DNA from: Pseudolabrys sp.
GTDB lineage: Bacteria; Pseudomonadota; Alphaproteobacteria; Rhizobiales; Xanthobacteraceae
Reading direction: 5' to 3'
Assembly: GCA_035648555.1 (NCBI GenBank)
Contig: DASRLF010000020.1
Location: forward strand, 2,606 to 66,605
DNA: 64,000 nucleotides
Shown: piece after piece, positions 13,203-31,976 of the stretch
Numbering within the stretch: the first letter of the stretch is position 1
Layout of the letters: every line of letters begins with the position of its first letter
Notes under the pieces: model-generated
Database searches by the model: none
Told to the model about the DNA's origin: nothing
Seen by the model: only the letters and a program-made list of their open reading frames with translations
Program-made: the position numbers and the translations under genes

Positions 13203-13817
13203 TCAGATGTCGAAGAAAACCGTTTCGTCGCCGCCCTGGACGCGAATGTCGAAGCGGTAGGTGGCGGGGCCGCTGCCGGGCTGCTTGTGGGCAATAAGGG
13301 TGCCGCGGCGGTCTGCCGGCACTAGCGTCAGGATTTGATCGGCATCGTTCGCCTTCTCGTCGGAGAAATACAGCCGCGTATAGATCTGCCGCAGCATGCC
13401 GCGCGAGAAGATGCAGACCACGATATGCGGCGCCTGCGGCTTGCCGTTCGGCCCCTGCACCGCGCCGGGCTTGACGGTGTCGAACGAATAGATGCCGTCT
13501 TTGTCGGTGGCGGAACGGCCGAAGCCGGTAAACTTCGCATTCGGGCGCGGCTTCTCACCGCGCGCATGGGCATAACGGCCTTGGGCATCGGCCTGCCAGA
13601 TTTCGATCATGGCGTCGTTGATCGGCTTGCCGTCACCGTCGAGCACGCGGCCTTCGATGTGGATCTTGGTGCCGGTGGCGTCGGGTGTGATCAGATTGTC
13701 GCCGACGGTTTCCTTCCAGCTATAGTGGCCGTTCGGATCCCATTGGCAGCGGCCATCAGGCGTCAGCCCATAGGCGAAGAACGGCCCAACCGTCTGTGAG
13801 GGCGTGATTTCGGACAT
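13203..13817 (-). CDS. pcaG: Protocatechuate 3,4-dioxygenase alpha subunit
   Basis: ITPSQTVGPFF, IEIWQADAQG, QAPHI..FSRG, YRFDIRVQG..ETVFFDI. Confidence 0.96.
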   Translation of the reverse strand: MSEITPSQTVGPFFAYGLTPDGRCQWDPNGHYSWKETVGDNLITPDATGTKIHIEGRVLDGDGKPINDAMIEIWQADAQGRYAHARGEKPRPNAKFTGFGRSATDKDGIYSFDTVKPGAVQGPNGKPQAPHIVVCIFSRGMLRQIYTRLYFSDEKANDADQILTLVPADRRGTLIAHKQPGSGPATYRFDIRVQGGDETVFFDI

Positions 13818-14524
13818 TAGTGTTTATCCGTGTCTAGCGGCGTCGCCTCGCGCCCGCGCAACACGATGTTCCAGCGGAAGCAGAGCGCCCAGTCGGGAAT
13901 GGTGTTCTCCAGATCGAAGTTGGAGACCATGCGCTGGCGCGCTTTCTCGTCGGTCACCGAATTGAAGATCGGATCGAACGGAAACAGATAATCGCCGGGG
14001 AAATACATCTGGGTGACGAGGCGCGTGAGGAACGACTGGCCGAAGACCGAGAAATGGATGTGGTTCGGCCGCCAAGCATTGTGATGATTGCCCCACGGAT
14101 AGGCGCCGGGCTTCACGGTGATGAATTTGTAGTAGCCGTTCATGTCCGTGATGGTGCGGCCCGCGCCGGTGAAATTCGGATCGAGCGGCGCCGGATGCTG
14201 ATCGACGATGTGCACGTAGCGGCCGCAGGCATTAGCTTGCCAGATTTCCACCAGCGTCTCGGGGATCGGTCGCTTGTCCTCGTCCAGCACCTGGCCGTGC
14301 ACGATGATGCGCTCGCCCAAGGGCTCGCCTTTGTGCTGCTTGGTGAGGTCGTTGTCGGTGTCCTGGATCGCGTCGTGACCGAAGGCCGGACCTGAGAGCT
14401 CGGACAGCGTGTGCGGTACAATCACCAAAGGCTTGGACGGCGAGCGCTTCACCGTGCTGCGGTATTCCGGCGACAGATGCTTGGGAAAGGCGTCGAGGCT
14501 TTCCTTGGGATAGATCAGCGACAT
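13817..14524 (-). CDS. pcaH: Protocatechuate 3,4-dioxygenase beta subunit
   Basis: EIWQANACGRYVH, KPGAYPWGNHHNAWRPNHIHFS (Fe ligands Tyr/His). Confidence 0.97.
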   Translation of the reverse strand: MSLIYPKESLDAFPKHLSPEYRSTVKRSPSKPLVIVPHTLSELSGPAFGHDAIQDTDNDLTKQHKGEPLGERIIVHGQVLDEDKRPIPETLVEIWQANACGRYVHIVDQHPAPLDPNFTGAGRTITDMNGYYKFITVKPGAYPWGNHHNAWRPNHIHFSVFGQSFLTRLVTQMYFPGDYLFPFDPIFNSVTDEKARQRMVSNFDLENTIPDWALCFRWNIVLRGREATPLDTDKH

Positions 14525-14541
14525 TATCGTCGTCCTTGCTT

Positions 14542-15752
<1,211 letters not shown>

Positions 15753-15756
<4 letters not shown>

Positions 15757-16526
15757 GCCGCCTCGCCGTGGGCGCGGTTGGTGCGCGCCTGCAATTCACG
15801 CAACACTTCGAGCTCTTTCGCGGTCGGCGCCGGCGTCTCGGCGACCTTCGAGGCAAAACGTATTTTCCAGCCAGTGTTCTCCTGGATCTGCTCGCGTGTG
15901 ACGCCGGGATGAATCGAGACGACGGTCATTTCCTTGGTTTGCGGATCGGGCTCAAGCATCGCCAGGTCGGTGATCAACTTGGTCGGGCCTTTGGTTTTGA
16001 CGCCCAGTTTGGCCCGCGAGTCGCCGCCGGTGACGTGGCCGATCGACGTCACGAAATCGAGTCTGTCGACAAAGCCGCGCTTGCCCTGCGCCATGATGAT
16101 GAAAATCTCGCCGCACGAGGTGGCGATCTCCGGCGCGCCGCCGCCGCCGGGCAGCCGCACCTTCGGCTTGTCGTAGGGACCGACCACGGTGGTGTTGAGA
16201 TTGGCGTATTTGTCGATCTGCGCGCCACCGAGGAAGCCGATCTTGATGCGGCCGCCTTGCAGCCAGTAGCGGAACATTTCCGGCACCGACACGGTGGTGA
16301 CCGCAGTCTCGCACAATTCGCCGTCGCCGATCGACAGCGGCAGGATGTTGGGCTTGGTGGCGAGCGTGCCGGATTCGTAAATCAGCGTGATACCGGGCGC
16401 ATGCGTGAGGCGCGCGAGATTGCAGGCCGCCGAGGGCTGGCCGATGCCGACAAAGCAAACGTCGTCGTTCTTCAAAGCGCGCGCCGCAGCGATCGTCATC
16501 ATCTCGTTGGGCTTGTAGTCGGCCAT
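15753..16526 (-). CDS. pcaJ: 3-oxoadipate CoA-transferase subunit B (GctB/CatJ type)
   Basis: FVGIG, LIYESG, GGAQIDKYANLN, RLPGGGGA. Confidence 0.88.
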
Positions 16527-16531
16527 GCTTC

Positions 16532-17395
16532 TTACTCCGCCGCCGAACTAAGTTTGCGCGCGTGCACGGCAAAAGCCTCGGGGCCTTTCGCCAGCACGTT
16601 TTCCTTCATCCATGAAAGGAACGAGTCGCGCTCGCGCGAGACCGCATCCCATTGCTTGTAGAAACTGTTGTTGCGCGGGTAATAGCCCTGCGCATACGAC
16701 GGGAACGCGCCGCCCGGTACCTCGACCACATGGCCGACGGTCCAGTGCGGCAGCACCACCGCATTGAGGCTGCGATCCGGCGGCAGCTCGTCGACGATCT
16801 CCTCCACCGTCACCACCGAGCGCTTCGACGCCAACACCGCTTCCTTCTGCACGCCGAGCACGCCCTCGATCATGACGTTACCGGCTTTGTCGGCGCGTTG
16901 CGCATGGATCATCGCGACGTCTGGCCGGTGCGCCGGGATCGCGGCCAGTTCCTCGCCGGTGAAAGGACAGGTCACCCGCTTGATCTTGGAATTCACTTTC
17001 GGCAGGTCGCCGCCGATATAGCCGCGGAAAATCGCGCAAGGCAGCCCGGCAGCGCCCGCTTCATAGGCGTTGGCCATGGCGGCGTGCGAATGCTCCTCTA
17101 TTTCCAATTTATGCGGCCAGCCGTTTTCTACTGCGTCGCGAAAACGATACAGCGAGCCGACGCCCGGATTGCCGCCCCATGAGAACACCAGTTTCTTGAC
17201 GCACCCCATGCCGATGAGCTGGTCGTAAACCAGGTCTGGCGTCATGCGGATCAGCGTCAGGCCCTTGCGGCCCTGGCGGATGATCTCGTGGCAGGCGGCA
17301 TGGGGAATGAGATGGGTGAAGCCCTCCAGCGCCATCGTGTCGCCGTCGCGAACGGCATCTTTAATGGCTTCGGCGAGAGACGAAATACGCGCCAT
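16532..17395 (-). CDS. pcaI: 3-oxoadipate CoA-transferase subunit A (GctA/CatI type)
   Basis: ALEGFTHLIP, RMTPDLVYDQLIG, WGGNPGVGSL. Start ATG 17395. Confidence 0.88.
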   Translation of the reverse strand: MARISSLAEAIKDAVRDGDTMALEGFTHLIPHAACHEIIRQGRKGLTLIRMTPDLVYDQLIGMGCVKKLVFSWGGNPGVGSLYRFRDAVENGWPHKLEIEEHSHAAMANAYEAGAAGLPCAIFRGYIGGDLPKVNSKIKRVTCPFTGEELAAIPAHRPDVAMIHAQRADKAGNVMIEGVLGVQKEAVLASKRSVVTVEEIVDELPPDRSLNAVVLPHWTVGHVVEVPGGAFPSYAQGYYPRNNSFYKQWDAVSRERDSFLSWMKENVLAKGPEAFAVHARKLSSAAE

Positions 17396-17467
17396 GCGAG
17401 GCTGCTTCCCGGTTGCGGCACCGTATTTACGGCTGGTCACAGGCAGGGTCAAATGGCGAAATAGGCG

Positions 17468-17487
17468 TAAGTTTGAGCTCCAACGAA
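17468..17487. promoter_or_regulatory. Putative MarR operator, degenerate copy (TAAGTTTGAGCTCCAACGAA)
   Basis: 13/20 match to the 22321 palindrome; abuts the DUF3237 start codon in the pcaI/DUF3237 divergent gap. Confidence 0.5.
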
Positions 17488-17948
17488 TGGCAGCCATGCT
17501 GGGCAAAGAACCGATCTTCACAATTCACGCCGACTTGGCGGACATCATGAATTTCGGCCGCACGCCCTATGGCGAGCGCCGCGTTATCGGCATCCTCGGC
17601 GGCAGCGTGCGCGGACCCAAGTTGCAAGGGCGTATCCTGCCGGGCGGCTTCGACTGGCAAATCATACGCAATGACGGCGCGGCGGATATCAGCGCGCGCT
17701 ACACCATCGAGACGGATGCCGGCGCGCGCATCCTGGTGTCGAGCGACGGCTTGCGGCATGGTCCGCCCGACGTGATGGCGCGGCTGGCGCGGGGCGACAG
17801 TGTCGACCCCTCGCACTATTATTTCCGCACGGTGATGCGGTTTGAGACTGCCGATCCGGCGGTGGACTGGCTCAACCGGATTCTCGGATTGACGCGCGGA
17901 CAGCGCGAGGCCAACGCCGTGCGTCTCGATGTCTATGAGGTCAAATAA
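17487..17948 (+). CDS. DUF3237 family beta-barrel protein
   Basis: TPYGERRVI.I.GG.V.GPKLQG..LPGGFDWQ, ARYTIETD, YYFRTVMRFET pattern. Confidence 0.85.
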   Translation: MAAMLGKEPIFTIHADLADIMNFGRTPYGERRVIGILGGSVRGPKLQGRILPGGFDWQIIRNDGAADISARYTIETDAGARILVSSDGLRHGPPDVMARLARGDSVDPSHYYFRTVMRFETADPAVDWLNRILGLTRGQREANAVRLDVYEVK

Positions 17949-18742
17949 TGGCGGATCGGCTGGACGTAAAACTGCCTGCCTCGCTCGCCGCCGAGCGACA
18001 GGGCGCGGTGGCGATATTGCGCCTGGCGCGGCCCACCAAGCGCAACGCATTCAACGACGAGACCATTCTCGGCATCGAGACATTCTTCACGTCGCTGCCG
18101 GACGGCGTCGGCGCGGTGCTGCTGCACGGCGAGGGCGAGCATTTTTCCGCCGGGCTCGATTTGAGCGAGCTTAAGGAGCGCGACGTCGCGCAGGGCATCG
18201 CGCATTCCGGACTGTGGCATCGCGCCTTCGAGAAAATCCAGTTCGGCAAGGTGCCGGTGGTCGCCGTGCTGCATGGCGCGGTGGTCGGTGGCGGGCTGGA
18301 ATTGGCCGCCAGCGCGCACGTGCGCGTCGCCGAACGCTCGGCTTATTACGCGCTGCCGGAAGGCAGCCGCGGCATCTATGTCGGCGGCGGCGGCTCGGTG
18401 CGGTTGCCGCGGTTGATCGGCATCGCGCGCATGATGGACATGATGCTCACCGGCCGCACTTATTCCGCCGAGGAAGGTCACGCCATGGGGCTAACGACCT
18501 ATCTGGTCGAGCCGGGCCAGGGTTTTGCCAAAGGTCTCGAGCTGGCGACGGCAATCGCCGGCAATGCGCCGCTCACGAACTTTGCGGTGATGCAGGCGCT
18601 GCCGCGCATCGCCGAGATGGATCCGGCCAGCGGCTACGAAGTCGAGGCGCTGATGTCGGCGATCGCGCAGGCCGATCCCGAGGCAAAAGCGCGGCTGAAG
18701 GAATTTCTGGCAAAGCGCGCGCCAAAGGTGACGCGGCCTTGA
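17948..18742 (+). CDS. Enoyl-CoA hydratase/crotonase family (hydroxycinnamoyl-CoA pathway context)
   Basis: HFSAGLDL, GAVVGGGLELA, LPEGSRGIYVGGG; adjacent to fcs. Confidence 0.88.
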   Translation: MADRLDVKLPASLAAERQGAVAILRLARPTKRNAFNDETILGIETFFTSLPDGVGAVLLHGEGEHFSAGLDLSELKERDVAQGIAHSGLWHRAFEKIQFGKVPVVAVLHGAVVGGGLELAASAHVRVAERSAYYALPEGSRGIYVGGGGSVRLPRLIGIARMMDMMLTGRTYSAEEGHAMGLTTYLVEPGQGFAKGLELATAIAGNAPLTNFAVMQALPRIAEMDPASGYEVEALMSAIAQADPEAKARLKEFLAKRAPKVTRP

Positions 18743-20586
18743 GCGCACCGCTACGCCCCGTGCGCCTCGGCGCGCTCGATCCGGTGTTGGAGCGGCGCGG
18801 CGACGGCGTAATTCATATCCGCGCCAAGCAGGTGCTACCGCCTTATCACGCCAAGCTGAGCGAGCCGTTGCAGCATTGGGCCAACGCCGCGCCCGAGCGC
18901 GTGTTCCTGGCGCAGCGCGGCGCGCAAGACCGCTGGCGCACCCTGTCGTATGCGGAAGTTCTGGCGCGCGTGAAGCGCATCGGCGCTTCATTATTGCGCC
19001 GCGGGCTGTCGGCCGAGCGGCCGATCGCAATCATTTCCGGCAACGACATCGAGCACGCGCTACTGGCGCTGGCGGCGATGTATGTCGGCATTCCTTACGC
19101 GCCGATTTCGCCGGCTTATTCACTGCTATCGAGCGACTTCGGTAAATTGCGCGCCATCATCGATTTGCTGACGCCCGGCCTGGTGTTTGCCAATGACGGC
19201 GGGCCGTTCGCGCGCGCGCTTTATCAAACGGTGCCGGACGATATCGAACTGGTGGTGACGCGCAATCCGCTGGGCGACCGCCCCACCGCGCTGTTCGCCG
19301 ATCTCACCGGCGCCGACGACGACGCGGGCGTTGCCGCCGCGCACGCGAAGGTCACGCCCGACACGATCGCAAAATTTTTATTCACCTCTGGCTCGACCGG
19401 ATCGCCCAAGGCAGTCGTCAACACCCAGCGCATGCTGTGCGCTAACCAGGCGATGCTGGCGGCCGGTTTTTGTTTCGTCGCCGACCAGCCGCCGGTGGTG
19501 GTGGACTGGCTGCCGTGGAGCCATACCTTCGGCAGCAACCACAACTTCAATATGGTGCTGGTAAACGGCGGCTCGCTCTACATCGACGACGGCAATCCGA
19601 CGCCGCCGGGCGTGCCGAAGACCGTGCGTAATCTGCGCGAGATCGCGCCGACCATCTATTTCAACGTGCCGAAAGGTTACGAGGCGCTGGTGCCGCATTT
19701 CCGCGCCGACAGACAATTGGCGCAGAATTTCTTCAGCCGGCTGAAGGTGCTGTTTTACGCCGGCGCCGGGCTCAACCAGACCACCTGGGACGATCTCACC
19801 AAGCTCGCGATCGAGACCACCGGGGAGCGCATTATTTTTCTGTCCTCGCTCGGCTCGACCGAAACCGCGCCGCTGGCGCTGGCCTGCACCTGGGATTTCG
19901 GCCGCCCCGGCAATATCGGGCTGCCGGCGCCGGGCGTCGAACTCAAACTGGTGCCGAACGAAGGCAAGCTGGAGGCGCGCCTGCGCGGGCCGCACATCAC
20001 GCCGGGCTATTGGCGGCAGGATCAACTCACGCGTGAGGCGTTCGATGAGGGAGGCTTTTATAAATTGGGCGACGCGCTGAAATTCGTCGACCCCAACGAT
20101 GCCGGCAAGGGTCTGCTGTTCGACGGCCGCATTGCCGAGGACTTCAAGCTTTCGACCGGCACCTGGACCAGTGTCGGTCCCTTGCGCGCCCGCTTCATCG
20201 ATCACTTTGCGCCCTTGGTGCGGGATGTCGTGTTCGCCGGGCCCGACCGTGACGATATCGTGGCGCTGGTGATCCCCGATATCGAAGCCTGCCGCAAATT
20301 CGCCGGCCTTACGGCTGATGCGGCACCCGCCGCTGTGCTGGACGAGCCGCGCCTGCGCGCGAAATTCACCGAACTGCTCAACCAACTTGCCGTCACGAGC
20401 CGCGGCACCTCGACCCGGGTGACGCGCGCCATTCTGATGGCGGAGCCGCCATCGATGGACAAAGGTGAAATGACCGACAAGGGCTCGATCAACCAGCGCG
20501 CGGTCCTCAAAAACCGCGCCGCGCTGGTGGACGAGCTTTATGCCACGCCGCTATCCTCGCAGGTGATCGCCACCGACAGCGCCTAA
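18739..20586 (+). CDS. fcs: Feruloyl/hydroxycinnamoyl-CoA synthetase
   Basis: LFTSGSTGSPK, DWLPWSHTFGSNHN, YFNVPKGYE, LGSTETAP, EMTDKGSINQRAVL. TTG start overlaps the ech stop. Confidence 0.88.
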   Translation: MSAPLRPVRLGALDPVLERRGDGVIHIRAKQVLPPYHAKLSEPLQHWANAAPERVFLAQRGAQDRWRTLSYAEVLARVKRIGASLLRRGLSAERPIAIISGNDIEHALLALAAMYVGIPYAPISPAYSLLSSDFGKLRAIIDLLTPGLVFANDGGPFARALYQTVPDDIELVVTRNPLGDRPTALFADLTGADDDAGVAAAHAKVTPDTIAKFLFTSGSTGSPKAVVNTQRMLCANQAMLAAGFCFVADQPPVVVDWLPWSHTFGSNHNFNMVLVNGGSLYIDDGNPTPPGVPKTVRNLREIAPTIYFNVPKGYEALVPHFRADRQLAQNFFSRLKVLFYAGAGLNQTTWDDLTKLAIETTGERIIFLSSLGSTETAPLALACTWDFGRPGNIGLPAPGVELKLVPNEGKLEARLRGPHITPGYWRQDQLTREAFDEGGFYKLGDALKFVDPNDAGKGLLFDGRIAEDFKLSTGTWTSVGPLRARFIDHFAPLVRDVVFAGPDRDDIVALVIPDIEACRKFAGLTADAAPAAVLDEPRLRAKFTELLNQLAVTSRGTSTRVTRAILMAEPPSMDKGEMTDKGSINQRAVLKNRAALVDELYATPLSSQVIATDSA

Positions 20587-20598
20587 GGACACGAGATC

Positions 20599-21360
20599 AT
20601 GGACATCAAGGGACAGGCGGCCATCGTCACCGGCGGCGCATCGGGATTAGGCGCGGCCACTGCGCGTGCGCTCGCCACCGCCGGCGCCAAGGTGGCGGTG
20701 TTCGATCTCAACGAGAAAGGCGCGGCCGACGTCGCCGCCGACATCAAGGGCATCGCGGTGGCCTGCGACGTCGCCAGCGCGCAGAGCGCCAAGGCCGCGA
20801 TCGAGACCGCCAGCGCCGCGCATGGGCCGGCGCGCATTCTGATCAATTGCGCCGGCGTCGGGCCGGCCAAGCGCATCGTCGGCCGCGACGGGCCGATGCC
20901 GCTGGAAGATTACGAGAAGGTCATCCGCGTCAACCTGATCGGCACCTTCAACATGATGCGGCTCGCCGCCGCCGCCATGGCGCCGCTCGACCTGTTGCCG
21001 GAGGGCGAGCGCGGCGTGATCGTTTCGACCGCCTCGGTCGCGGCCTTCGAAGGCCAGATCGGGCAATCCGCTTATTCGTCATCCAAGGGCGGCGTCGCCG
21101 CCTTGACGCTGCCGGCGGCGCGCGAGTTCGCGTCATTCGGCGTGCGCGTGCTGGCGATCGCGCCCGGAATCTTCGGCACGCCGATGCTGCGCGCGTTGTC
21201 GCAGGAGGTACAGGACTCGCTTGGCGCCGCGGTGCCGTTCCCCAAACGCCTAGGCGAGCCGAGCGAATTCGCCGCGCTGGCGATGCACTGCATCAACAAT
21301 ACCTATCTCAACGGCGAGGTCATCCGCCTCGACGGCGCGATACGCCTGGCGCCGCGTTAA
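20599..21360 (+). CDS. SDR family 3-hydroxyacyl-CoA dehydrogenase (type II, HSD17B10-like)
   Basis: [33 protein letters not shown]. Confidence 0.9.
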
Positions 21361-21776
21361 TGATCACAAACAGCCGCAAGGTTCGTATCGAATGGGGCGA
21401 CTGCGACCCCGCCGGCATTATTTTCTATCCGCGCTATTTCGAAATCTTCGACGCCTCGACCTCGGCGTTGTTCGAGCGCGCGATGGGCATGACCAAAATT
21501 CAATTGCTCAAGACCTTCAACTTCGCCGGCTATCCGCTGGCGAAAACGCGCGCGCGGTTCCTCAAGCCCACGCGTTTCGGCGACGACGTGACGGTGGATA
21601 CGTCCGTCAAATTCGGCCGCGCCAGTTTCGAGATCGAACACCGGCTCAGCCTGAACGGCGAGACTTGCGTCGAATGTTCGGAGACCCGCGTCTGGGTGGT
21701 GCGCGATCCGGCAACCGGCGGCATCAAGTCGCACGCGGTTCCGGCGGCGGTGCTGGCGAAGTTCAAAGCGCCCTAG
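21360..21776 (+). CDS. Acyl-CoA thioesterase (4-hydroxybenzoyl-CoA thioesterase family)
   Basis: IEWGDCDPAGIIFYPRYF motif; ATG overlaps the SDR stop (TAATG). Confidence 0.9.
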   Translation: MITNSRKVRIEWGDCDPAGIIFYPRYFEIFDASTSALFERAMGMTKIQLLKTFNFAGYPLAKTRARFLKPTRFGDDVTVDTSVKFGRASFEIEHRLSLNGETCVECSETRVWVVRDPATGGIKSHAVPAAVLAKFKAP

Positions 21777-21781
21777 CGGCC

Positions 21782-22312
21782 TTACTCGATCTCCGCCGCC
21801 AGCCTTTTCAAAATCTGGATGAACCGCTTGCGGTCGCGTTGCCCGATGATGCCGTCCATCACGCGCTCGTGCCGGCGCGCGCAGCGCGTCAGGTCGGTGA
21901 GCGTCTTCTTGCCGGCCGGCGTCAAATTCAGCCGATAGGTGCGCCGGTCCTGGCGGGTGCGCTTGCGCTCGACCAGGCCGCGCCGCACCAGATCCTCGAC
22001 CACCGGGGTGAGGCTCGATTTGTCGCGGCCGTTGGCATGGCTCAACTCGGTCTGGCTGATGCCGGGGTTGCGCGCGATGATCGTCAGCGTGGCGAAACGG
22101 CCCGGGCTTTCGCCGATCTCCTGCGAACGGCGCGAAAACGCCTGAAAGGAGGACTCCTGCGCCATGCGCAGATTGAAGCCGACCCAGTACTCGAGCGGTC
22201 CGAATCTGACCGATTCGGCAATGGCTTCGCCGTTCTTGCCGCGCCGCACCCGATTGGCGCCGTTGGTCGCCCGCACTGTCGTTGCCCTCACCCGGCCGCC
22301 TGCACTCCGCAA
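21782..22312 (-). CDS. MarR family transcriptional regulator (start codon uncertain)
   Basis: PGISQTELS...DKSSLTPVVEDLVRRGLVERKR..DRRTYRLNLTPAG winged helix. Confidence 0.92.
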   Translation of the reverse strand: MRSAGGRVRATTVRATNGANRVRRGKNGEAIAESVRFGPLEYWVGFNLRMAQESSFQAFSRRSQEIGESPGRFATLTIIARNPGISQTELSHANGRDKSSLTPVVEDLVRRGLVERKRTRQDRRTYRLNLTPAGKKTLTDLTRCARRHERVMDGIIGQRDRKRFIQILKRLAAEIE

Positions 22313-22320
22313 GCCGGTAC

Positions 22321-22340
22321 ATAGTTTGATATCAAACTAT
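22321..22340. promoter_or_regulatory. Putative MarR operator, perfect 20-bp palindrome ATAGTTTGATATCAAACTAT
   Basis: Exact self-reverse-complement between divergent marR and dctP. Confidence 0.75.
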
Positions 22341-22422
22341 AACCTTTACAACGTCCACGACATGCGGCTGAATAATAAAAAAGTTGGCAAGCAAACCAAC
22401 ACCCAACCGAGGGAGGAAGTCC

Positions 22423-23448
22423 ATGAAAATTCGCTTCGCCGTCAGCGCGGTGGTGATCGCCGGCCTGATCAGCGGCCCGGCGCTCGCCCAGGAAAAGACC
22501 TTCGAACTCAAGCTTTCGCACTGGGTGCCGGCCTCGCATCCGCTGCAAAAGGCGCTGGAAGACTGGGGCGCCGCGGTCGAGAAAGCATCCGGCGGCACGC
22601 TGCATTACAAAGTTTATCCGGCGCAGCAGCTCGGCAAAGCCTTCGACCATTACGACATGGCGCGCGACGGCATCGCCGACCTCACTTATATCAATCCCGG
22701 CTATCAGCCCGGCCGCTTCCCGATCATCGCCGCCGGCGAATTGCCGTTCTTGATTTCGGACACCAAGGGCGGCTCGGAAGGACTCGACGTCTGGTATCGA
22801 AAATATGCAGCAGCCGAAATGAAGGACGTGAAATTCTGCCTCGCCTTCATCCACGCGCCGAGCTCGTTCCACTCGAGCACCAAGAAGATCGTGCTGCCTG
22901 GCGACATCAAGGACATGAAGATACGTCCTGCCGACGCGACCATCGCGAACTTCGTCACGTTGCTCGGCGGCACCAACGTTCAATCGTCGGCCCCCGAAGT
23001 ACGCGACATCATCGAGCGCCACGTCGCCGACGCCGTGACCTTCCCGTGGGGATCGCTGGTGCTGTTCGGCATCGACAAGGTGACGAAGTATCACATGGAT
23101 GCGCCACTCTACGTCACCACCTTCGCCTTCGTGTTCAACAAGGACAAATACAACCAGATGTCCGATCGGCAGAAGAAGGCGATCGACGACAACTGCAACA
23201 CCGAAGCAGCCGCCCGTGTCGGCGGGCCATGGGGCAAGTTCGAGGACGCCGGCGTCGACAAGGTGAAGGCTGAACCTGGACAAGAGGTTTACAAGCTCAC
23301 GGCCGAGCAGACCGCGGCGTGGAAGAAAGCGGCCGAGCCGCTGGTCAAGACCTGGGCCGATGGCGTCAAGAAGGTTGGCGTCGATCCCGACGTCGCGATG
23401 AAGGAACTTCGCGCCGACCTTGCTAAATATAACGCGCTGGCGAAGTAA
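22423..23448 (+). CDS. dctP: TRAP transporter substrate-binding protein (DctP family; aromatic-acid context)
   Basis: Signal peptide; LKLSHWVPASHP, YPAQQLG, IRPA, DAVTFPW; GGAGG RBS. Confidence 0.9.
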   Translation: MKIRFAVSAVVIAGLISGPALAQEKTFELKLSHWVPASHPLQKALEDWGAAVEKASGGTLHYKVYPAQQLGKAFDHYDMARDGIADLTYINPGYQPGRFPIIAAGELPFLISDTKGGSEGLDVWYRKYAAAEMKDVKFCLAFIHAPSSFHSSTKKIVLPGDIKDMKIRPADATIANFVTLLGGTNVQSSAPEVRDIIERHVADAVTFPWGSLVLFGIDKVTKYHMDAPLYVTTFAFVFNKDKYNQMSDRQKKAIDDNCNTEAAARVGGPWGKFEDAGVDKVKAEPGQEVYKLTAEQTAAWKKAAEPLVKTWADGVKKVGVDPDVAMKELRADLAKYNALAK

Positions 23449-23473
23449 ACCGGCGCGCCAACGATATTGGACT

Positions 23474-23502
23474 ATCGGCGGCGGGGATCCCCCGCCGCCG
23501 AT
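23474..23502 (+). terminator. GC-rich 13-bp hairpin between dctP and dctQ (attenuator or mRNA-stabilising stem, no U tract)
   Basis: ATCGGCGGCGGGG-ATC-CCCCGCCGCCGAT. Confidence 0.55.
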
Positions 23503-23531
23503 TCTACTGACTGTCGGAGTCTGGTGCGGCC

Positions 23532-24041
23532 ATGAAACGCGTCACCATGGATCGTTTCATCGATACGATCGAATGGATCGCTGCGTTTTTTATCGGCATT
23601 GTCGCACTCAACATTTTCGTCGCCGTGCTGCTGCGTAACATTTTCAATTACGCGATTCCGGATTCTTACGACTTCGGCCGGCTGCTGCTCGGCATTCTTA
23701 TTTTCTGGGGCATCGCGGCGACGTCGTATCGCGGCGGCCATATCACCGTCGATCTGATCTGGGCCAATGTCGGCCCGAAATACCAGCGCATGATCGACGT
23801 GTTCGCGACGCTGGTGCTGCTGTTCGTCGTGGCGGTGCAGACCTACACGCTGTTCGACAAGGTGCGCGGCACTTATTACGACCACGTGCTGACGTTCGAC
23901 CTGCGCCTGCCGACCTGGCCGTTCTTCGCGGTCGCCTGGATCGGCGACGTGTCCGCCGTGCTGCTGATCGCGGTTCGCACCTACCGTCTGATCTTCCAGC
24001 CGGATTTAATGCACGACACTAAAATCAAACCGGTTGAGTGA
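23532..24041 (+). CDS. dctQ: TRAP transporter small permease
   Basis: 4 TM segments; GGHITVDL motif. Confidence 0.9.
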   Translation: MKRVTMDRFIDTIEWIAAFFIGIVALNIFVAVLLRNIFNYAIPDSYDFGRLLLGILIFWGIAATSYRGGHITVDLIWANVGPKYQRMIDVFATLVLLFVVAVQTYTLFDKVRGTYYDHVLTFDLRLPTWPFFAVAWIGDVSAVLLIAVRTYRLIFQPDLMHDTKIKPVE

Positions 24042-24051
24042 AAGAGACGCG

Positions 24052-25362
24052 ATGAGCACCGAGGCCGTCGCAATTCTGGGCTTTGTCTCGTTGTTCGGCT
24101 TGATGCTGCTACGCGTCCCGGTCGGCATGGCGATGGGCTTGGTCGGCGTCACCGGCTTTAGCTATCTGGTCGGCGCCGGGCCGGCGCTCAAGCTGGTCGG
24201 CGCGACGTCGATGCGCACCGTCACCGACTACACTTTCGGCGTCATCCCGATGTTCCTGCTGATGGGCACCTTCGTGTCCAATTCCGGCATGAGCCGGCAG
24301 CTGTTCAGTGCGGCCAACGGTTTCGTCGGACATCTGCGCGGCGGCCTGGGCTTCGCCACCGTCGCCGCTTGCGGCGGCTTTGCCGCAATCTGCGGCTCGT
24401 CGGTGGCGACCGCGGCGACATTCTCCGCCGTCGCCTATCCGGAGATGCGGCGCCACGGCTACCCGCAGAGCTTCGCCACCGGCGTCATCGCCGCCGGCGG
24501 CACGCTCGGCGCCATGCTGCCGCCGTCAACGGTGCTCGCGGTTTACGGCATCATCACCGAACAGGATATCGGCAAGCTGTTCATGGCCGGAATAGTTCCC
24601 GGCATTCTGGCGATGCTGATGTATCTCTGCACCATTGCGGTCATCGGCTATGTGCGGCCCGGTTTTCTGCCGACCGGCCCGCGCGCCAGCTGGGCGCAGC
24701 GAATGTCCGGGCTGAAGGAAATCTGGGCGCCCGCGCTGCTGTTTATCTTCGTCATCGGCGGGCTCTATGGCCTGCCGTTCCTGCCGCGCTTCACGCCGAC
24801 CGAAGCCGGCGGCGTCGGCGCCAGCGGGGCACTCGTGATCGGCGTCCTTACCGGCAAGCTCAACAAAGAGAAAATCCTGATGTCGCTGCTGCAGGCGACG
24901 CGCACGGCGGCGGCGGTATTCACGGTGCTGATCGGCGCGCTGATCTTCGGCTATTTCCTCACCATCACGCAGACGCCGCAGCGGGTCACCGAATTTCTCA
25001 CCGGGCTCGGGCTCGGCAGTTACGGCGTGCTGGCACTGATCATGCTGATGTATCTGGTGCTCGGCTGCCTGATGGATGCGATGGCGATGATCATCCTGAC
25101 CGTGCCGATCATCTTCCCGGTCGTGACCCATCTCGGTTTCAATCCGATCTGGTTCGGCGTGATCATCGTGATGACGGTCGAACTCGGGCTCATTCATCCG
25201 CCGGTCGGGATGAACGTGTTCGTGATCAAAAGCGTGGTGAAGGACGTGAGTTTCGCCACGATTTTCAAGGGCGTAATCCCCTTTATCATCACCGATCTGA
25301 TCCGGCTGGTGATCCTGATCGCCTTCCCGATTCTGGCGCTTTGGCTACCCTCGCATATGTAA
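24052..25362 (+). CDS. dctM: TRAP transporter large permease
   Basis: IPMFLLMG, FAAICGSSVATAA, GGTLGAMLPPS, GLIHPPVGMNVFV. Confidence 0.93.
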   Translation: MSTEAVAILGFVSLFGLMLLRVPVGMAMGLVGVTGFSYLVGAGPALKLVGATSMRTVTDYTFGVIPMFLLMGTFVSNSGMSRQLFSAANGFVGHLRGGLGFATVAACGGFAAICGSSVATAATFSAVAYPEMRRHGYPQSFATGVIAAGGTLGAMLPPSTVLAVYGIITEQDIGKLFMAGIVPGILAMLMYLCTIAVIGYVRPGFLPTGPRASWAQRMSGLKEIWAPALLFIFVIGGLYGLPFLPRFTPTEAGGVGASGALVIGVLTGKLNKEKILMSLLQATRTAAAVFTVLIGALIFGYFLTITQTPQRVTEFLTGLGLGSYGVLALIMLMYLVLGCLMDAMAMIILTVPIIFPVVTHLGFNPIWFGVIIVMTVELGLIHPPVGMNVFVIKSVVKDVSFATIFKGVIPFIITDLIRLVILIAFPILALWLPSHM

Positions 25363-25377
25363 CCCCAATCTGGTAAT

Positions 25378-25397
25378 ATAGTTGGGGTCCCAACTAT
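25378..25397. promoter_or_regulatory. Putative MarR operator, third copy (ATAGTTGGGGTCCCAACTAT)
   Basis: Palindromic at 18/20 positions, 14/20 identical to the 22321 site, 16 nt upstream of the iorA ATG. Confidence 0.65.
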
Positions 25398-25413: not shown

Positions 25414-27567
25414 ATGGAACGCTCGTTTAAAAAAGAGGTGCAGGCGCTCAGGCTGGGCGACGGCGAGACCTTCCGCGGCGAAGGCATCCTGGCCGTCACC
25501 AAGGCGTTGCTGCAATCGGGCGTGTCCTATGTCGGCGGCTACCAGGGCGCGCCGGTGTCGCATCTGCTCGACGTGCTGGTGGATGCCGAAGACATCATGG
25601 CCGAGCTCGGAGTCCATCTGGAAACCTGCTCGAACGAAGCCTCCGCCGCCGCCATGCTGGGCGCTTCGATCAATTATCCGCTGCGCGGCGCGGTGACCTG
25701 GAAATCGATCGTCGGCACCAATGTGGCCGCCGACGCGTTGTCCAATCTGTCGTCGCCCGGCGTGGTCGGCGGCGCCATGATCATTCTCGGCGAGGATTAC
25801 GGCGAAGGCGCCAGCGTGATCCAGGAACGCTCCTATGCCTATGCGCTGAAATCCTCGATGTGGCTGCTCGATCCGCGCCCCGATCTGCCGTCGATCGTGC
25901 GCATGGTGGAGAAAGGCTTCGAGCTGTCGGAGGCAAGCCACGCGCCGGTGATGCTGGAGCTGCGCATCCGCGCCTGCCACGCTACCGGCGAATTCGCCGC
26001 CAAGGATAATCGCAAGGGTGCGATCTCCGGCCTCGACAAGCTGGCCGGCCCGCCGCGCTTCAACTATGGCCGGCTGGCCCATCCGCCGGTGATCTTCAGC
26101 CAGGAGAAACTGAAGATCGAGGAACGCCTGCCGGCTGCGCGCGCCTTCATCCGCGAGCATAAACTCAACGAATGCATCGCTGGCGATCTCGGCGATATCG
26201 GCATCATCGTCATGGGTGGGTTGACCAACTCTGTGCTGCGCGCGCTCGAGCGCATCGGATTGGCCGACGTATTCGGCGTCTCGCGCGTGCCGCTGCTGGT
26301 GCTCAACGTGGTCTATCCGCTGGTGCCGGAGGAAATCCGCGAATTCTGCGCCGGCAAGCGCGCCGTGCTTATCGTCGAGGAGGGCAACCCCGACTACATC
26401 GAGCAGGCGGTCAACGTCGAATTACGCCGCGCCGACATCCAGACCCGTGTGCTCGGCAAGGGTCCGCTGCCGCAGGCCGGCGAATACACCTCCGACGTAC
26501 TGCTGGAAGGCCTGGCGGCATTTCTGCAAACCGCGAAGCCGAACGGCGTCGACGCCGAGACCGTGGCCGAAAAAGCCCGCGGGCTGATCGCCCATAAAGC
26601 CAAGGCTGCCGCGGCGCTTGGGCCATTACCCCCGCGCCCCCCGGCCTTCTGCACCGGCTGCCCGGAGCGCCCCGTTTTTTCCGCCATCAAACTGATGCAG
26701 CGCGAACTGGGGCCGACCCACATCAGCGCCGACATCGGCTGCCATTCGTTCGCGACCTTCGCGCCGTTCAGCATGGGCAATTCGATTCTGGGCTACGGCA
26801 TGTCGCTGGCGAGCGCCGCGGCGGTGACACCGAACATGGACAAGCGCCCGATCGCGATCATGGGCGACGGCGGCTTCTGGCATAATGGGCTGATCACCGG
26901 CGTCGCCTCGAATTTGTTCAACAAAGGCGACGGCGTTTTGATCGTGATGCAGAACGGCTACGCCTCCGCGACCGGCCAGCAATACATCCCGTCGAGCGTG
27001 ACCAGCCGCGACGGCGCGGTACCCGGCATGGATATTGAGCAGACGTTGCGCATCATGGGCGTGAAATGGCTGCGCACCGTGCGCACCTATAGCGTCAGCG
27101 TGATGGTGAAGGCGCTGAAAGAAGCCATGCGCACCGCCGAGCGCGGCCTCAAGGTCATCATTGCCGATGGCGAATGCCAGCTGGCGCGCCAGCGCCGCGT
27201 GCGCGCCGAGGACGCCGTCAAGCTCGAGCGCGGTGAGCGCGTGACACGCACACGCTACGGCGTCGACGACGAGATCTGCACCGGCGATCATTCCTGCATT
27301 CGTCTGTCCGGCTGCCCATCGCTGACGGTGAAACCGTCTACCGACCCGCTGCGCAGCGATCCAGTGGCAACGGTGATCGAGTCTTGCGTGGGCTGCGGGC
27401 TGTGCGGCGAAGTCGCGCATGCGGCAGTACTGTGCCCCTCGTTTTACCGCGCAGAGATCGTGCGCAACGCCACCTGGCGCGACCGCGCGGCATTTCGCAT
27501 CCGACAGAAAGTCATCGGCTGGCTCGGCGGCTATGGCGGCGAGGCTGCGGCAAAGGCCGCATCATGA
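25414..27567 (+). CDS. iorA: Indolepyruvate:ferredoxin oxidoreductase-like alpha subunit
   Basis: GGYQGAP, FCTGCPERP, DIGCH, TPP motif GDGGFWHNG, C-terminal ferredoxin CTGDHSC...CVGCGLC. Confidence 0.88.
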   Translation: MERSFKKEVQALRLGDGETFRGEGILAVTKALLQSGVSYVGGYQGAPVSHLLDVLVDAEDIMAELGVHLETCSNEASAAAMLGASINYPLRGAVTWKSIVGTNVAADALSNLSSPGVVGGAMIILGEDYGEGASVIQERSYAYALKSSMWLLDPRPDLPSIVRMVEKGFELSEASHAPVMLELRIRACHATGEFAAKDNRKGAISGLDKLAGPPRFNYGRLAHPPVIFSQEKLKIEERLPAARAFIREHKLNECIAGDLGDIGIIVMGGLTNSVLRALERIGLADVFGVSRVPLLVLNVVYPLVPEEIREFCAGKRAVLIVEEGNPDYIEQAVNVELRRADIQTRVLGKGPLPQAGEYTSDVLLEGLAAFLQTAKPNGVDAETVAEKARGLIAHKAKAAAALGPLPPRPPAFCTGCPERPVFSAIKLMQRELGPTHISADIGCHSFATFAPFSMGNSILGYGMSLASAAAVTPNMDKRPIAIMGDGGFWHNGLITGVASNLFNKGDGVLIVMQNGYASATGQQYIPSSVTSRDGAVPGMDIEQTLRIMGVKWLRTVRTYSVSVMVKALKEAMRTAERGLKVIIADGECQLARQRRVRAEDAVKLERGERVTRTRYGVDDEICTGDHSCIRLSGCPSLTVKPSTDPLRSDPVATVIESCVGCGLCGEVAHAAVLCPSFYRAEIVRNATWRDRAAFRIRQKVIGWLGGYGGEAAAKAAS

Positions 27568-29096
27568 CCAGCACACGCCCCATCACCTTGCTGATCGCTG
27601 CGCTCGGCGGCGAAGGCGGCGGCGTGCTGACCGACTGGATCGTCTCGGCGACGGCCGAGGCCGGTTTTCCGGTGCAGAGCACGTCGATCCCCGGCGTCGC
27701 GCAGCGCACCGGCGCCACCACCTACTACATCGAGATTTTTCCGGTTCAGGCGCGCGGGCTTGGCGGCAAGCGGCCGGTGTTGGCGCTCACGCCTGGCGTC
27801 GGCGACATCGACATCGCGATGGCGAGCGAAATGCTGGAAGCCGGCCGCATGGTGGCGAGCGGCTTCGTTACGCGGGAGCGCACGCATCTCATCGCGTCGC
27901 TCAGCCGCTTCTATGCCATGGACGAAAAGATCGCGATGGGCGACGGCCGCTTCGACCAGGACAAGCTGATCAAGACCGTCAAGGACAATGCGCGCGACGC
28001 ACTTCTGATCGACATGGACGCGCTGGCAAAGCTTAGCGGCTCGATCATCAGCGCGGTGATGCTCGGCGCCATCGCCGGCTTGCAGCGGCTGCCGCTGACG
28101 GCCGAGCAATTCGAAGCCGCGATCCGCGCCGACGGAAAGTCAGTCGACAGCAATTTGCGCGGCTTCCGCGCCGGGTTTGAGGCCGCGCGCGCCAAAATGC
28201 CGCCGGTCAAAACCGCTGACAAAAAGAACAACGCGCCGACCACGCCCGATCTGCTCGAACATGAAGTGACGTACTCGCTACCCGCCTTGGCGCAGCCGAC
28301 GGCGATCGAAGGCGTGCGGCGGCTCATCGCATATCAAGGCGTCGGTTACGCGCGGCTCTATCTCGACCGGCTGCGCGCTTTGGTCGATGCCGACGCTGCC
28401 GGCGGCGCACCGGGCAAGCTGCTCAAGGAAGTCGCGCGCCATCTTGCGGTGCGCATGTCGTACGAGGACGTGGTGCGGGTGGCGCAAGCCAAGATCGCGC
28501 CGTCACGCATGCGCCGCATCGCGCGCGAAGAATTGCGCGTGAAGAACGAGCCTTATTCGGTGCACGATTTCCTCAAGCCCGGCATCGAGGAAATGTGCCA
28601 GCTGCTGCCGTCGTTCCTGGCGCGGCCGATCCTGTCGTTCAGCGAGCGCCGGGGCTGGCTCGGCCGGGTCTATTTCGGCATGGAGATCAATTCGACCTCG
28701 ATCAGCGGCTATCTGCGTTTCCTGATGCTGGCCAAGTTGCGCGGCTTGCGTCCGCACGGCCATCGCTACAAGCAGGAACAAGTACAGATCGAATCTTGGC
28801 TGGCGCTGATCGCCGAGGCGGCGCGGCAGCCGGGTGAACTGGCGCGCGAAGTCGCGGAATGCGCGCGGTTGATCAAAGGTTATGGCGACACTTATGCGCG
28901 CGGCCTTTCCAACTACCGCAGCATCGAGGCCCGCGTGATCCGCCCGGCACTGGCGGGCCATATCCCACCGCAACGCGCCGCCGACGCCGTCGCCAGCGCG
29001 CGCACAGCCGCGTTGGTCGATCCCGAGGGCGAAAGCCTCGCCAAATGCCTGGCCGAAATCGATGGAACCGGAACTTTCCGGATCGCGGCCGAATAG
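27564..29096 (+). CDS. iorB: Indolepyruvate oxidoreductase beta-subunit family, long form with C-terminal extension
   Basis: LGGEGGGVL, TSIPGVAQRTGATTYY; ATGA overlap with iorA. Confidence 0.85.
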   Translation: MTSTRPITLLIAALGGEGGGVLTDWIVSATAEAGFPVQSTSIPGVAQRTGATTYYIEIFPVQARGLGGKRPVLALTPGVGDIDIAMASEMLEAGRMVASGFVTRERTHLIASLSRFYAMDEKIAMGDGRFDQDKLIKTVKDNARDALLIDMDALAKLSGSIISAVMLGAIAGLQRLPLTAEQFEAAIRADGKSVDSNLRGFRAGFEAARAKMPPVKTADKKNNAPTTPDLLEHEVTYSLPALAQPTAIEGVRRLIAYQGVGYARLYLDRLRALVDADAAGGAPGKLLKEVARHLAVRMSYEDVVRVAQAKIAPSRMRRIAREELRVKNEPYSVHDFLKPGIEEMCQLLPSFLARPILSFSERRGWLGRVYFGMEINSTSISGYLRFLMLAKLRGLRPHGHRYKQEQVQIESWLALIAEAARQPGELAREVAECARLIKGYGDTYARGLSNYRSIEARVIRPALAGHIPPQRAADAVASARTAALVDPEGESLAKCLAEIDGTGTFRIAAE

Positions 29097-29208
29097 CCGC
29101 GCCGGTCCGTTGTCAGCCCCCGCCTCTGTCGCGTAAAAGACCAGCAACAACACGGCGTCCGGGGGGACACCTTGCCAAGCTTCGCCGCGGACGCCTGAGG
29201 GCGACGCA

Positions 29209-30915: not shown

Positions 30916-30959
30916 AACTCTAGCCCAAAAGAACAATCGCCAGTCACGGAGGACAGTCT

Positions 30960-31976
30960 ATGCGCATCGATGCCTACACCCACTTCATCCCGGAAAAGTT
31001 TTTCAACAAGATCGTGGAAAGCGGGCACCACGACATCGGCAAACGCGTGCGCGAGATCCCGTGCATCCACGACATCGAGGTGCGCCGCAAGATCGTCGAC
31101 GGCTTCAAGGATTATGCGCAGATCATTTCCTACCCGATGCCGCCGCTCGAACTATTGGCCAAGGGCGATGCCGCGCTGGTGGAGGAATACACCAAACTAG
31201 TGAACGACGGCTTTGCCGATATTTGCGCGAAATATCCCGACCAGTTTCCCGGCTGGGTGGCGCAGGCGCCGCTGGCGGCCGCCGACGCCGGCGTGCGCGA
31301 ATGCGAGCGCGCCCTCAAAAACGGCGCGCTCGGCGTGCAGATCTACACCAACGTCGCAGGCCGGCCGCTCGACGATCCGGCATTCGAGCCGTTCTTTGCC
31401 GCCATGAACAAAAACGGCAAGCCGATCTGGATGCACCCGGCGCGCGCCGCTAATTTCCCGGATTACCTTTCAGAGAAAAAATCGAAATACGAAATCTGGT
31501 GGACCTTCGGCTGGTCCTACGAAACCGCGGCGGCGATGGCGCGCCTGGTGTTCTCAGGCATCATGGACAAATACCCGAACCTGAAGATCATCACCCACCA
31601 CTTCGGTGGCATCGTGCCGATGCTGGAAGGCCGCATCGGCCCGGGCTGGGATCAGCTCGGCTCACGCACCTCGGACGAGGACTTGAGCCTGGTGCTCAAA
31701 CGGCTGAAGAAGCGCCCGCTCGATTATTTCAAGCACTCGTTCTATGCCGACACCGCGGTGTTCGGCGGCGAACCGGCGACCCGCGCCGGCTTCGAGTTCT
31801 ACGACCACGACAAGATCGTGTTCGCCTCCGACTGCCCATTCGATCCCGAAAAGGGCACGATGTACACGCGCGAAACGCTGCGCATCGTCGATGAATTGGA
31901 CATGCCGAAGGCCGACAAAGAGAATATCTGGCACGGTAATCTCGAGCGGATCACAGGGGTAAAATTCAAGTCGTAG
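30960..31976 (+). CDS. Amidohydrolase_2 family protein (ACMSD/LigW-like decarboxylase or hydratase)
   Basis: IDAYTH, IWMHP, ITHHFGG, FASDCPF. Confidence 0.85.
   Translation: MRIDAYTHFIPEKFFNKIVESGHHDIGKRVREIPCIHDIEVRRKIVDGFKDYAQIISYPMPPLELLAKGDAALVEEYTKLVNDGFADICAKYPDQFPGWVAQAPLAAADAGVRECERALKNGALGVQIYTNVAGRPLDDPAFEPFFAAMNKNGKPIWMHPARAANFPDYLSEKKSKYEIWWTFGWSYETAAAMARLVFSGIMDKYPNLKIITHHFGGIVPMLEGRIGPGWDQLGSRTSDEDLSLVLKRLKKRPLDYFKHSFYADTAVFGGEPATRAGFEFYDHDKIVFASDCPFDPEKGTMYTRETLRIVDELDMPKADKENIWHGNLERITGVKFKS

Follow-up and report, generated by a model that had tools for sequence, protein, structure and literature searches.

The MarR-family regulators of aromatic-acid catabolism closest to the one considered here are CouR of Rhodopseudomonas palustris, HcaR of Agrobacterium fabrum and CouR of Rhodococcus jostii RHA1. 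We analyzed a 64,000-nt stretch of DNA from Pseudolabrys sp., a common soil genus (assembly GCA_035648555.1, contig DASRLF010000020.1, positions 2,606-66,605; genome of ~3 Mb), which as a whole will be referred to as the window. It contains a marR gene and, upstream of this gene and of two neighboring operons, copies of a 20-bp palindrome which are very probably bound by the neighboring MarR (21782-22312), as judged from comparative genomics.

In R. palustris, CouR controls couAB, TarPQM and CouPSTU (PMC3610893). Its operator, as given by primer sequences in the supplement of PMC9594313, is AATAGTTATAGAGTATAACAA, and the binding site used in that work is CTGTGCAGAATAGTTATAGAGTATAACAA. The SpG8-1b region of A. 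fabrum encodes a feruloyl-coenzyme A (CoA) synthase, an enoyl-CoA hydratase, a short-chain dehydrogenase/reductase (SDR) and a CoA-ester-cleaving enzyme under the autorepressing MarR HcaR; this beta-oxidative route ends in hydroxybenzoates, which feed pcaHG (PMC7797058). In RHA1, four operons have a CouR box that overlaps their -35. The Arg36/Arg38 mechanism of that protein is not conserved in proteobacterial regulators, and the known hydroxycinnamoyl-CoA-responsive MarRs share no common ligand signature (PMC4737184). [quoted passage not shown]

Results

Palindromes upstream of marR, iorA and the DUF3237 operon

Four sites of the window are copies of an inverted repeat whose consensus is (A/T)TAGTT(T/G)G-N4-C(A/C)AACTA(T/A):

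22321-22340, site 2, the predicted primary operator: ATAGTTTGATATCAAACTAT, a perfect 20-bp palindrome; weight-matrix score 34.9, the highest of the genome
25378-25397, site 3: ATAGTTGGGGTCCCAACTAT, arms 9+9 complementary, 14/20 match to site 2; weight-matrix score 30.7
17468-17487, site 1: TAAGTTTGAGCTCCAACGAA, a weaker inverted repeat, 13/20 match to site 2; weight-matrix score 25.1
22380-22399, site 4, auxiliary and uncertain: AAAGTTGGCAAGCAAACCAA, in the marR-dctP gap, 23 nt before the dctP ATG; weight-matrix score 15.2, at the edge of the shuffle range

Sites 1 to 3 had been reported in the original prediction, and their positions (22321, 25378 and 17468), the perfect symmetry of site 2 and the 14/20 and 13/20 matches are all read directly in the sequence. 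Site 4, in the same gap as site 2, is an additional copy that had been overlooked. Site 2 is located 8 nt before the longest marR start (TTG) and 4 bp before the -35-like TTTACA of a predicted dctP promoter. Site 3 lies within the 51-bp dctM-iorA gap, with the iorA ATG 16 nt downstream. Site 1 is at the right edge of the 100-bp divergent gap between pcaI and the DUF3237 gene, and the conserved DUF3237 ATG (17496) follows 8 nt after it; another ATG, at 17487, is touched by site 1 and is not conserved in the alignment of relatives. With the starts indicated by this alignment (17496 for DUF3237 and 17395 for pcaI), sites 1 to 4 are therefore all intergenic, at 8-23 nt from a start codon. Their announced placement, just upstream of operon starts or in a divergent gap, is in agreement with this.

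The pattern AGTTNGNNNNCNAAC gives seven strand matches in the window, i.e. five distinct sites for 0.11 expected, and 0/100 shuffles reach seven; the pattern proposed earlier as common to the sites is well above chance in the window. The fifth match, at 39819, has a weight-matrix score below 8 and was dropped as chance. When ATAGTT-N8-AACTAT is scanned in the window with at most two mismatches, sites 2 and 3 only are recovered. The palindromes are not RNA hairpins, because the loops of sites 1 to 3 would be 0-2 nt.

Conservation in Pseudolabrys

With the MarR protein as query we collected 80 Pseudolabrys-like loci (MarR identity 74-95%), from genomes that are almost all metagenome-assembled, and ~20 kb were scanned per locus. 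The pattern derived from the window finds the three syntenic positions again in the 80 loci, with almost no further matches per 20 kb. A weight-matrix score of at least 12 was taken as the cut-off for calling a site in relatives. At this cut-off 79/80 loci have a site upstream of marR, 67/71 have one upstream of iorA and 48/55 Pseudolabrys loci have one upstream of DUF3237; over 1.36 Mb, 194 of the 203 positions retained are at the three syntenic places. In three loci (L049, L051 and L069, in our numbering) marR and iorA are direct divergent neighbors and have a single site between them.

In gap alignments that use no pattern, the arms appear as conserved blocks, the centers are variable and the flanks are less conserved. 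The columns of site 2 have a mean identity to the window of 0.89 vs 0.72 for the rest of the gap, and those of site 3 of 0.82 vs 0.54. These alignments, like the recurrence of the window-derived pattern, are independent of the training of the matrix.

At site 4 the element that is really conserved is GTTGG-N8-CCAAC (22383-22400), with an A-run on its 5' side, just before the dctP ribosome-binding site. The flanks of site 4, AAAGTTGG and AACCAA, are 84-100% conserved (75 loci). This element could be a binding site of a second mode or a hairpin of the 5' untranslated region. A scan called the site 4 repeat terminator-like on the minus strand, though there is nothing there to terminate.

The motif and MarR in other genera

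A sample of 201 genomes from across the family was also analyzed, 40 of which encode a MarR orthologue (41-75% identity). The strict motif TAGTTKGNNNNCMAAC is found in 22 of these 40 genomes vs 27 of the 161 without the MarR (odds ratio 6.1, p 2e-6), and 13 of its matches are at most 4 kb from marR. Outside Pseudolabrys, the matrix has a match in the gap adjoining marR in 17/18 loci (MarR identity 42-66%), whatever the gene order. In L089, L094-L096 and L103 a marR-iorA-iorB operon and dctPQM diverge from a gap that holds the site; the order is iorB-iorA-dctMQP-site-marR in L097 and L098; and in L087 and L088 the MarR orthologue is in an unrelated gene context with the palindrome still directly upstream.

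One MarR regulon joining marR/dctPQM, iorAB and the DUF3237 operon is the best reading of these sequences, because the motif is conserved before all three modules in ~80 loci and beside orthologous marR genes in other genera. The predicted link to iorA is its most robust part. The original prediction of a regulon over three modules stands in this form, and its possible extension to pcaIJFHG is doubtful (see below).

Among the other-genera loci examined, no operator of the site 1 type was found upstream of DUF3237. In L085 and L086 (genus g51) a different palindrome, TGTTCG-N6-CGAACA, is present ~20-40 bp upstream of DUF3237 instead of site 1, which suggests that another regulator controls the hydroxycinnamate operon in this genus.

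In L124 (6564-6588; genome G100) a 10+10 palindrome, AATTAGTTTGCTAATCAAACTAATT, with GTTTG/CAAAC arms and a 5-bp center, lies beside a MarR. This protein branches at the base of the window clade, with 36-37% identity to the window MarR and to CouR, and AATTAGTTTGCTAATCAAACTAATT is a possible intermediate form of the operator.

Rest of the genome

A weight-matrix scan of the own genome had been named as a check in the original prediction. The top six scores are 34.9, 30.7, 25.1, 21.9, 19.5 and 15.2, four of which are the sites of the window, and three shuffled genomes have zero matches in the score bins of 16 and above. The scan thus adds two sites above chance, before a DUF952 gene and before LivK-type ATP-binding cassette (ABC) transporter genes.

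The DUF952 site, GTAGTTGGGGTCCCAACGAT, is 18 bp upstream of the gene (contig C34 of the own genome, G000, 24483-24502; L081 4984-5003) and is kept in 11-12 of 30 Pseudolabrys genomes (~40%). On this basis the DUF952 protein, whose domain has no assigned function, appears tied to the aromatic-acid regulon. The neighbors of the DUF952 gene are an extracytoplasmic-function sigma/anti-sigma pair and a gene with a fasciclin domain.

The ABC site, TTAGTGGGATTCCCAACTAA, is 31 bp upstream of the gene of a LivK-type binding protein, which has permease and ATPase genes after it (contig C5), and is kept in 9 of ~12 close orthologues from other Pseudolabrys genomes. The gene of a second ABC binding protein, a paralogue of the first, also has a borderline site (score 13.1) before it. 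The nearest PDB entries of both binding proteins are 4ey3, 4eyg and 4eyk, which we take to be R. palustris proteins that bind 4-hydroxybenzoate, vanillate and protocatechuate.

Over the whole genome the loose 9-base pattern shows no enrichment, with 25 strand matches vs 42 for the reversed control. The case therefore rests on clustering, palindromy and conservation; the loose pattern is informative only with its flanks, as a weight matrix or through synteny.

Relation of the regulator to CouR

The best solved structure for the window MarR is R. palustris CouR (6c28; E 6e-15, 30% identity over 144 aa). In the maximum-likelihood tree the CouR clade (clade B) is split from the clade of the window MarR (clade A) with support 100/99, CouR being on a long branch. 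Against 6c28, the paralogue of L089 scores 109 bits vs 59 bits for the window MarR. In L122, L123, L127 and L130 a second MarR, 41-47% identical to CouR, adjoins the DUF3237-hydratase-ligase-SDR-thioesterase operon, and the clade-B MarR of L131 has TTTGTTATAGACTATAACAAA upstream. Given the 30% identity to R. palustris CouR, the separate clade (100/99) and the different span of the operator, the regulator cannot be kept as CouR-type, as first proposed: by its placement in the tree, the window MarR is a member of the sister clade of CouR, distinct from CouR. The Saro_0803 (resveratrol) MarR family, its best NCBIfam match, was likewise rejected, with 71 bits for a cut-off of 200.

Genes of the locus

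The earlier gene calls agree with Pfam and NCBIfam. The genes concerned are the following:

21782-22312, minus strand: MarR-family regulator, 176 aa from the longest start; Pfam MarR (E 1.1e-11) and MarR_2
22423-25362, plus strand: dctPQM-type TRAP transporter by Pfam (DctP 22423-23448, DctQ 23532-24041, DctM 24034-25362)
25414-27567 and ~27570-29096, plus strand: iorA and iorB (POR + DUF6537)
29209-30915 and 30960-31976, plus strand: thiamine pyrophosphate (TPP) enzyme and Amidohydrolase_2 protein, in the unit 25414-31976 which starts at iorA
17496-17948 and 17948-18742, plus strand: DUF3237 protein and enoyl-CoA hydratase, head of the unit 17496-21776
~18739-20586, plus strand: feruloyl-CoA-synthase-like acyl-CoA synthetase, ~620 aa, PRK12582 type
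20599-21360 and ~21357-21776, plus strand: SDR and 4HBT-type thioesterase, end of the DUF3237 unit
16532-17395 and 15753-16526, minus strand: pcaI and pcaJ, CoA-transferase subunits, divergent from DUF3237
14542-15756, 13817-14524 and 13203-13817, minus strand: thiolase pcaF, pcaH and pcaG, in the unit 13203-17395

DctP is 56% identical (E 2.5e-119) to PDB 7nqg, which matching of published primers established to be RPA1782, the TarP of R. palustris, and this TarP homologue has its DctQ and DctM partners. By homology dctPQM is a TarPQM-type TRAP transporter, with a predicted aromatic ligand range. IorA scores 260.2 bits with TIGR03336, the indolepyruvate:ferredoxin oxidoreductase (IOR) equivalog, below the cut-off of 650.9; it is therefore only a relative within the IOR family, and the name IorA is provisional. 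The acyl-CoA synthetase reaches 750 bits with PRK12582, for a cut-off of 777. In L089, the genes between iorB and the CouR-like MarR of this genus (14513-18362) encode Amidohydrolase_2, DHDPS-family and short MetE-like (Meth_synt_2) proteins.

The set of ligase, hydratase, SDR and thioesterase matches the beta-oxidative hydroxycinnamate route of A. fabrum (PMC7797058). The DUF3237 operon of the window is without a thiolase of its own; Pseudolabrys may therefore rely on the divergent pcaF or on the thioesterase. In other genera (L084-L086, L122, L127, L130) a thiolase gene (~39% identical to pcaF) is found between the ligase and the SDR.

Predicted promoters

For sites 1 and 2, generic promoter and terminator scans of the three gaps had no usable outcome, and we turned to conservation. 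The promoters below are our own predictions from conserved hexamers:

22345-22373, plus strand: predicted dctP promoter, TTTACA (22345-22350), N17, CTGAAT (22368-22373)
17452-17424, minus strand: predicted pcaI promoter, -35 TTGACC (17452-17447), N17, -10 TAAATA (17429-17424)
within 17405-17460, plus strand: predicted DUF3237 promoter, TTTACG-N17-TCAAAT, in the same conserved gap block

The hexamers of the dctP promoter are 96-100% conserved in 75 loci, with a variable spacer. In the pcaI/DUF3237 gap, the block 17405-17460 is at least 90% conserved and includes the palindrome CCGTATTTACGG. This block fits two interdigitated divergent promoters, with -10 and -35 overlapping on opposite strands, and it could also hold the site of a separate pca regulator. 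Site 1 is at about -61 of the predicted pcaI promoter, a poor position for repression; direct repression of pcaIJFHG, which had been considered possible, is therefore unlikely, and the membership of this operon in the regulon is doubtful.

Discussion

We consider it likely, on the strength of motif conservation and synteny, that the palindromes are MarR operators by which TRAP transporter, IorAB and hydroxycinnamate operon are co-controlled together with the two genomic sites, the regulon having been extended by site 1. From the sites, their conservation, the synteny and the clade structure as they are observed, the following picture of MarR binding, mode of repression and promoter use can be proposed. 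A homodimeric MarR free of effector would occupy sites 2, 3 and 1 as well as the genomic LivK-type ABC and DUF952 sites. At site 2 the repressor would sit in the marR leader while abutting the -35 of the divergent dctPQM promoter; site 4, weaker and at about +1 to +20 of dctP, may act together with it. At site 3 it would be placed directly before iorAB, the TPP enzyme and the amidohydrolase. Since this site is 16 nt before the iorA ATG, it would either overlap a promoter of the 51-bp gap or stop transcription that runs on from dctM. Site 1 would have a standard repression position, covering about +7 to +27 of the DUF3237-hydratase-ligase-SDR-thioesterase operon. An aromatic effector would free the repressor, so that uptake, CoA activation and side-chain shortening would be switched on jointly.

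Several observations weigh against this picture. The 80 loci belong to a single genus and are not independent, and the counts at a score of at least 12 are partly circular, since these syntenic sites had also served to train the weight matrix. For site 1 the conservation does not exceed that of its gap (0.73 vs 0.75), because the entire pcaI/DUF3237 gap is highly conserved. Site 4 has the canonical N4 spacing in 12-24 of 75 loci only (12/75 at a score of at least 12). A generic sigma-70 scan called no promoter at sites 1 and 2, and the position of site 2 relative to the predicted dctP promoter, about -41 to -60, is one that activators use too. A perfect copy of the motif exists in G124, a genome without the MarR; the two perfect sites of this genome are one duplicated element between convergent genes and were set aside as unrelated. 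Finally, the identity of the effector is not readable from sequence.

These points leave room for other explanations. The motif might be bound by a transcription factor of IclR, GntR or TetR type encoded elsewhere, MarR being a mere neighbor; further highly conserved blocks in the pcaI/DUF3237 gap would be able to serve a second regulator, and TGTTCG-N6-CGAACA does occur upstream of DUF3237 in other genera. We nevertheless regard this as quite improbable, because the best site is always immediately upstream of marR, through genera and rearrangements, and because the presence of the motif tracks that of MarR, the palindrome being kept even in the unrelated contexts of L087 and L088. Conservation for non-regulatory reasons (terminators, repetitive extragenic palindrome-like elements or plain inheritance) could be invoked from the location of site 3 after the dctM stop, from the terminator-like call on the minus strand at site 4 and from the G124 copies between convergent genes. 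It would have to account for loops of 0-2 nt at sites 1 to 3, for fixed arms around variable centers, for sites that follow marR through rearrangements and for the lack of genome-wide dispersal, and we give it hardly any credit.

More weight has to be given to alternatives which keep MarR as the binding protein and change its role. MarR could be an activator or dual regulator at dctPQM and a repressor at the sites downstream of promoters: 4 bp separate the end of site 2 from the predicted -35, a class-I/II-like position, and FerR, a MarR protein, both activates and represses (PMC10458429). This is unlikely in our view, since the characterized relatives CouR, HcaR and FerC are repressors, the assignment of the dctP promoter is itself predicted, and a site in the marR leader fits autorepression. 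It is also conceivable, though doubtful, that the regulator is functionally a CouR which senses only the hydroxycinnamoyl-CoA made by the ligase, iorAB being an accessory branch. CouR is indeed its best structural relative, and the ligase operon of Pseudolabrys carries an operator. But other genera have the clade with TRAP and iorAB and without the ligase and hydratase genes, which are there under their own CouR-clade MarR; in these genera hydroxycinnamoyl-CoA would not be made by the regulon's own genes. Moreover TarP binds 4-hydroxyphenylpyruvate, a 2-oxoacid of the kind used by IOR-type enzymes.

This last property bears on the choice of effector within the MarR regulon that we favor. IOR-type enzymes convert arylpyruvates to arylacetyl-CoA. 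The published binding of 4-hydroxyphenylpyruvate by TarP (Kd 42 nM) provides a rationale for the pairing of TRAP and IorAB, i.e. uptake of an aryl 2-oxoacid followed by its conversion to an acyl-CoA. The second TPP enzyme beside iorAB fits this 2-oxoacid theme. We tentatively favor, with slightly less than even confidence, an aryl-CoA thioester as effector, e.g. a hydroxycinnamoyl-CoA or the acyl-CoA formed by IorAB. Further candidates for this role are a common aroyl-CoA, a free aromatic acid and a 2-oxoacid.

As to the history of the regulon, the window MarR clade accompanies dctPQM and iorAB in other genera, and a CouR-clade paralogue is absent from 5/5 Pseudolabrys genomes sampled. An operator before ligase and hydratase genes beside this MarR is found in Pseudolabrys, whereas in other genera the site is absent or the genes are elsewhere with a clade-B MarR. 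The simplest history compatible with these sequences would be that MarR, the TarP-like TRAP and IorAB form an old regulon core across genera, and that Pseudolabrys lost the CouR-like regulator, its hydroxycinnamate operon coming under the control of this MarR through the gain of site 1. A more ambitious proposal combines two statements, and we think it rather less likely than not to hold as a whole: the module, widespread in Xanthobacteraceae, would import aryl 2-oxoacids such as 4-hydroxyphenylpyruvate by the TarP-like TRAP and, in aerobic soil bacteria, turn them by the two-subunit IOR-like enzyme into the aryl-CoA that is the effector; and the Pseudolabrys regulator would have displaced the CouR paralogue through the gain of one operator, so that a single signal would govern arylpyruvate catabolism, hydroxycinnamate catabolism and the uptake of hydroxybenzoate.

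MarR repressors that respond to a ligand and control aromatic catabolism are a well-known kind of system, and the prediction of this regulon is solid but fairly ordinary. It provides a testable operator consensus and a regulon of five to six promoters for an uncharacterized MarR clade in Pseudolabrys, and it corrects an easy mis-annotation, as the window MarR is not CouR. The conserved unit of MarR, TarP-like TRAP and IorAB may serve aerobes as a pathway for aryl 2-oxoacids. The locus would also be a natural example of regulon growth, by gain of an operator after loss of a paralogous regulator. A repressor-operator pair responsive to an aryl acid or aryl-CoA could find use in biosensors, as is already the case for both CouR proteins (PMC9594313).

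Comparison with known systems

The inverted repeat lies in the upstream region of marR itself and is repeated at the target promoters, as for an autoregulated MarR repressor. There is a likeness to CouR of R. palustris (RPA1794), a MarR repressor in an aromatic-acid locus, whose operator also starts with ATAGTT and whose regulon associates, as here, CoA activation with a TarP-type TRAP and a LivK-type ABC transporter. The operators nevertheless differ in their inner bases and in span, GTTATA-N3-TATAAC covering 15 bp in R. palustris and GTTKG-N4-CMAAC 14 bp here. Likewise iorAB, present here, is not reported in the CouR regulon, and the hydroxycinnamate genes are of the beta-oxidative type (SDR, thioesterase) whereas R. 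palustris uses a non-beta-oxidative route.

On this last point the DUF3237 operon resembles SpG8-1b of A. fabrum, under HcaR (Atu1422), which by its description has the same set of enzymes; TRAP and IorAB genes are not described there. With CouR of RHA1 the locus shares the general arrangement of one MarR and an inverted-repeat box before several operons, four in the case of the beta-oxidative hydroxycinnamate pathway of RHA1. The RHA1 box, ATTGA-N5-TCAAT, is different and overlaps the -35, and the RHA1 protein has ~25% identity even to R. palustris CouR. As for the enzyme encoded by iorAB, it has the composition of IOR-type 2-oxoacid:ferredoxin oxidoreductases, a TPP-binding alpha subunit and a POR-domain beta subunit, from which it differs by an IorB of ~500 aa with DUF6537.

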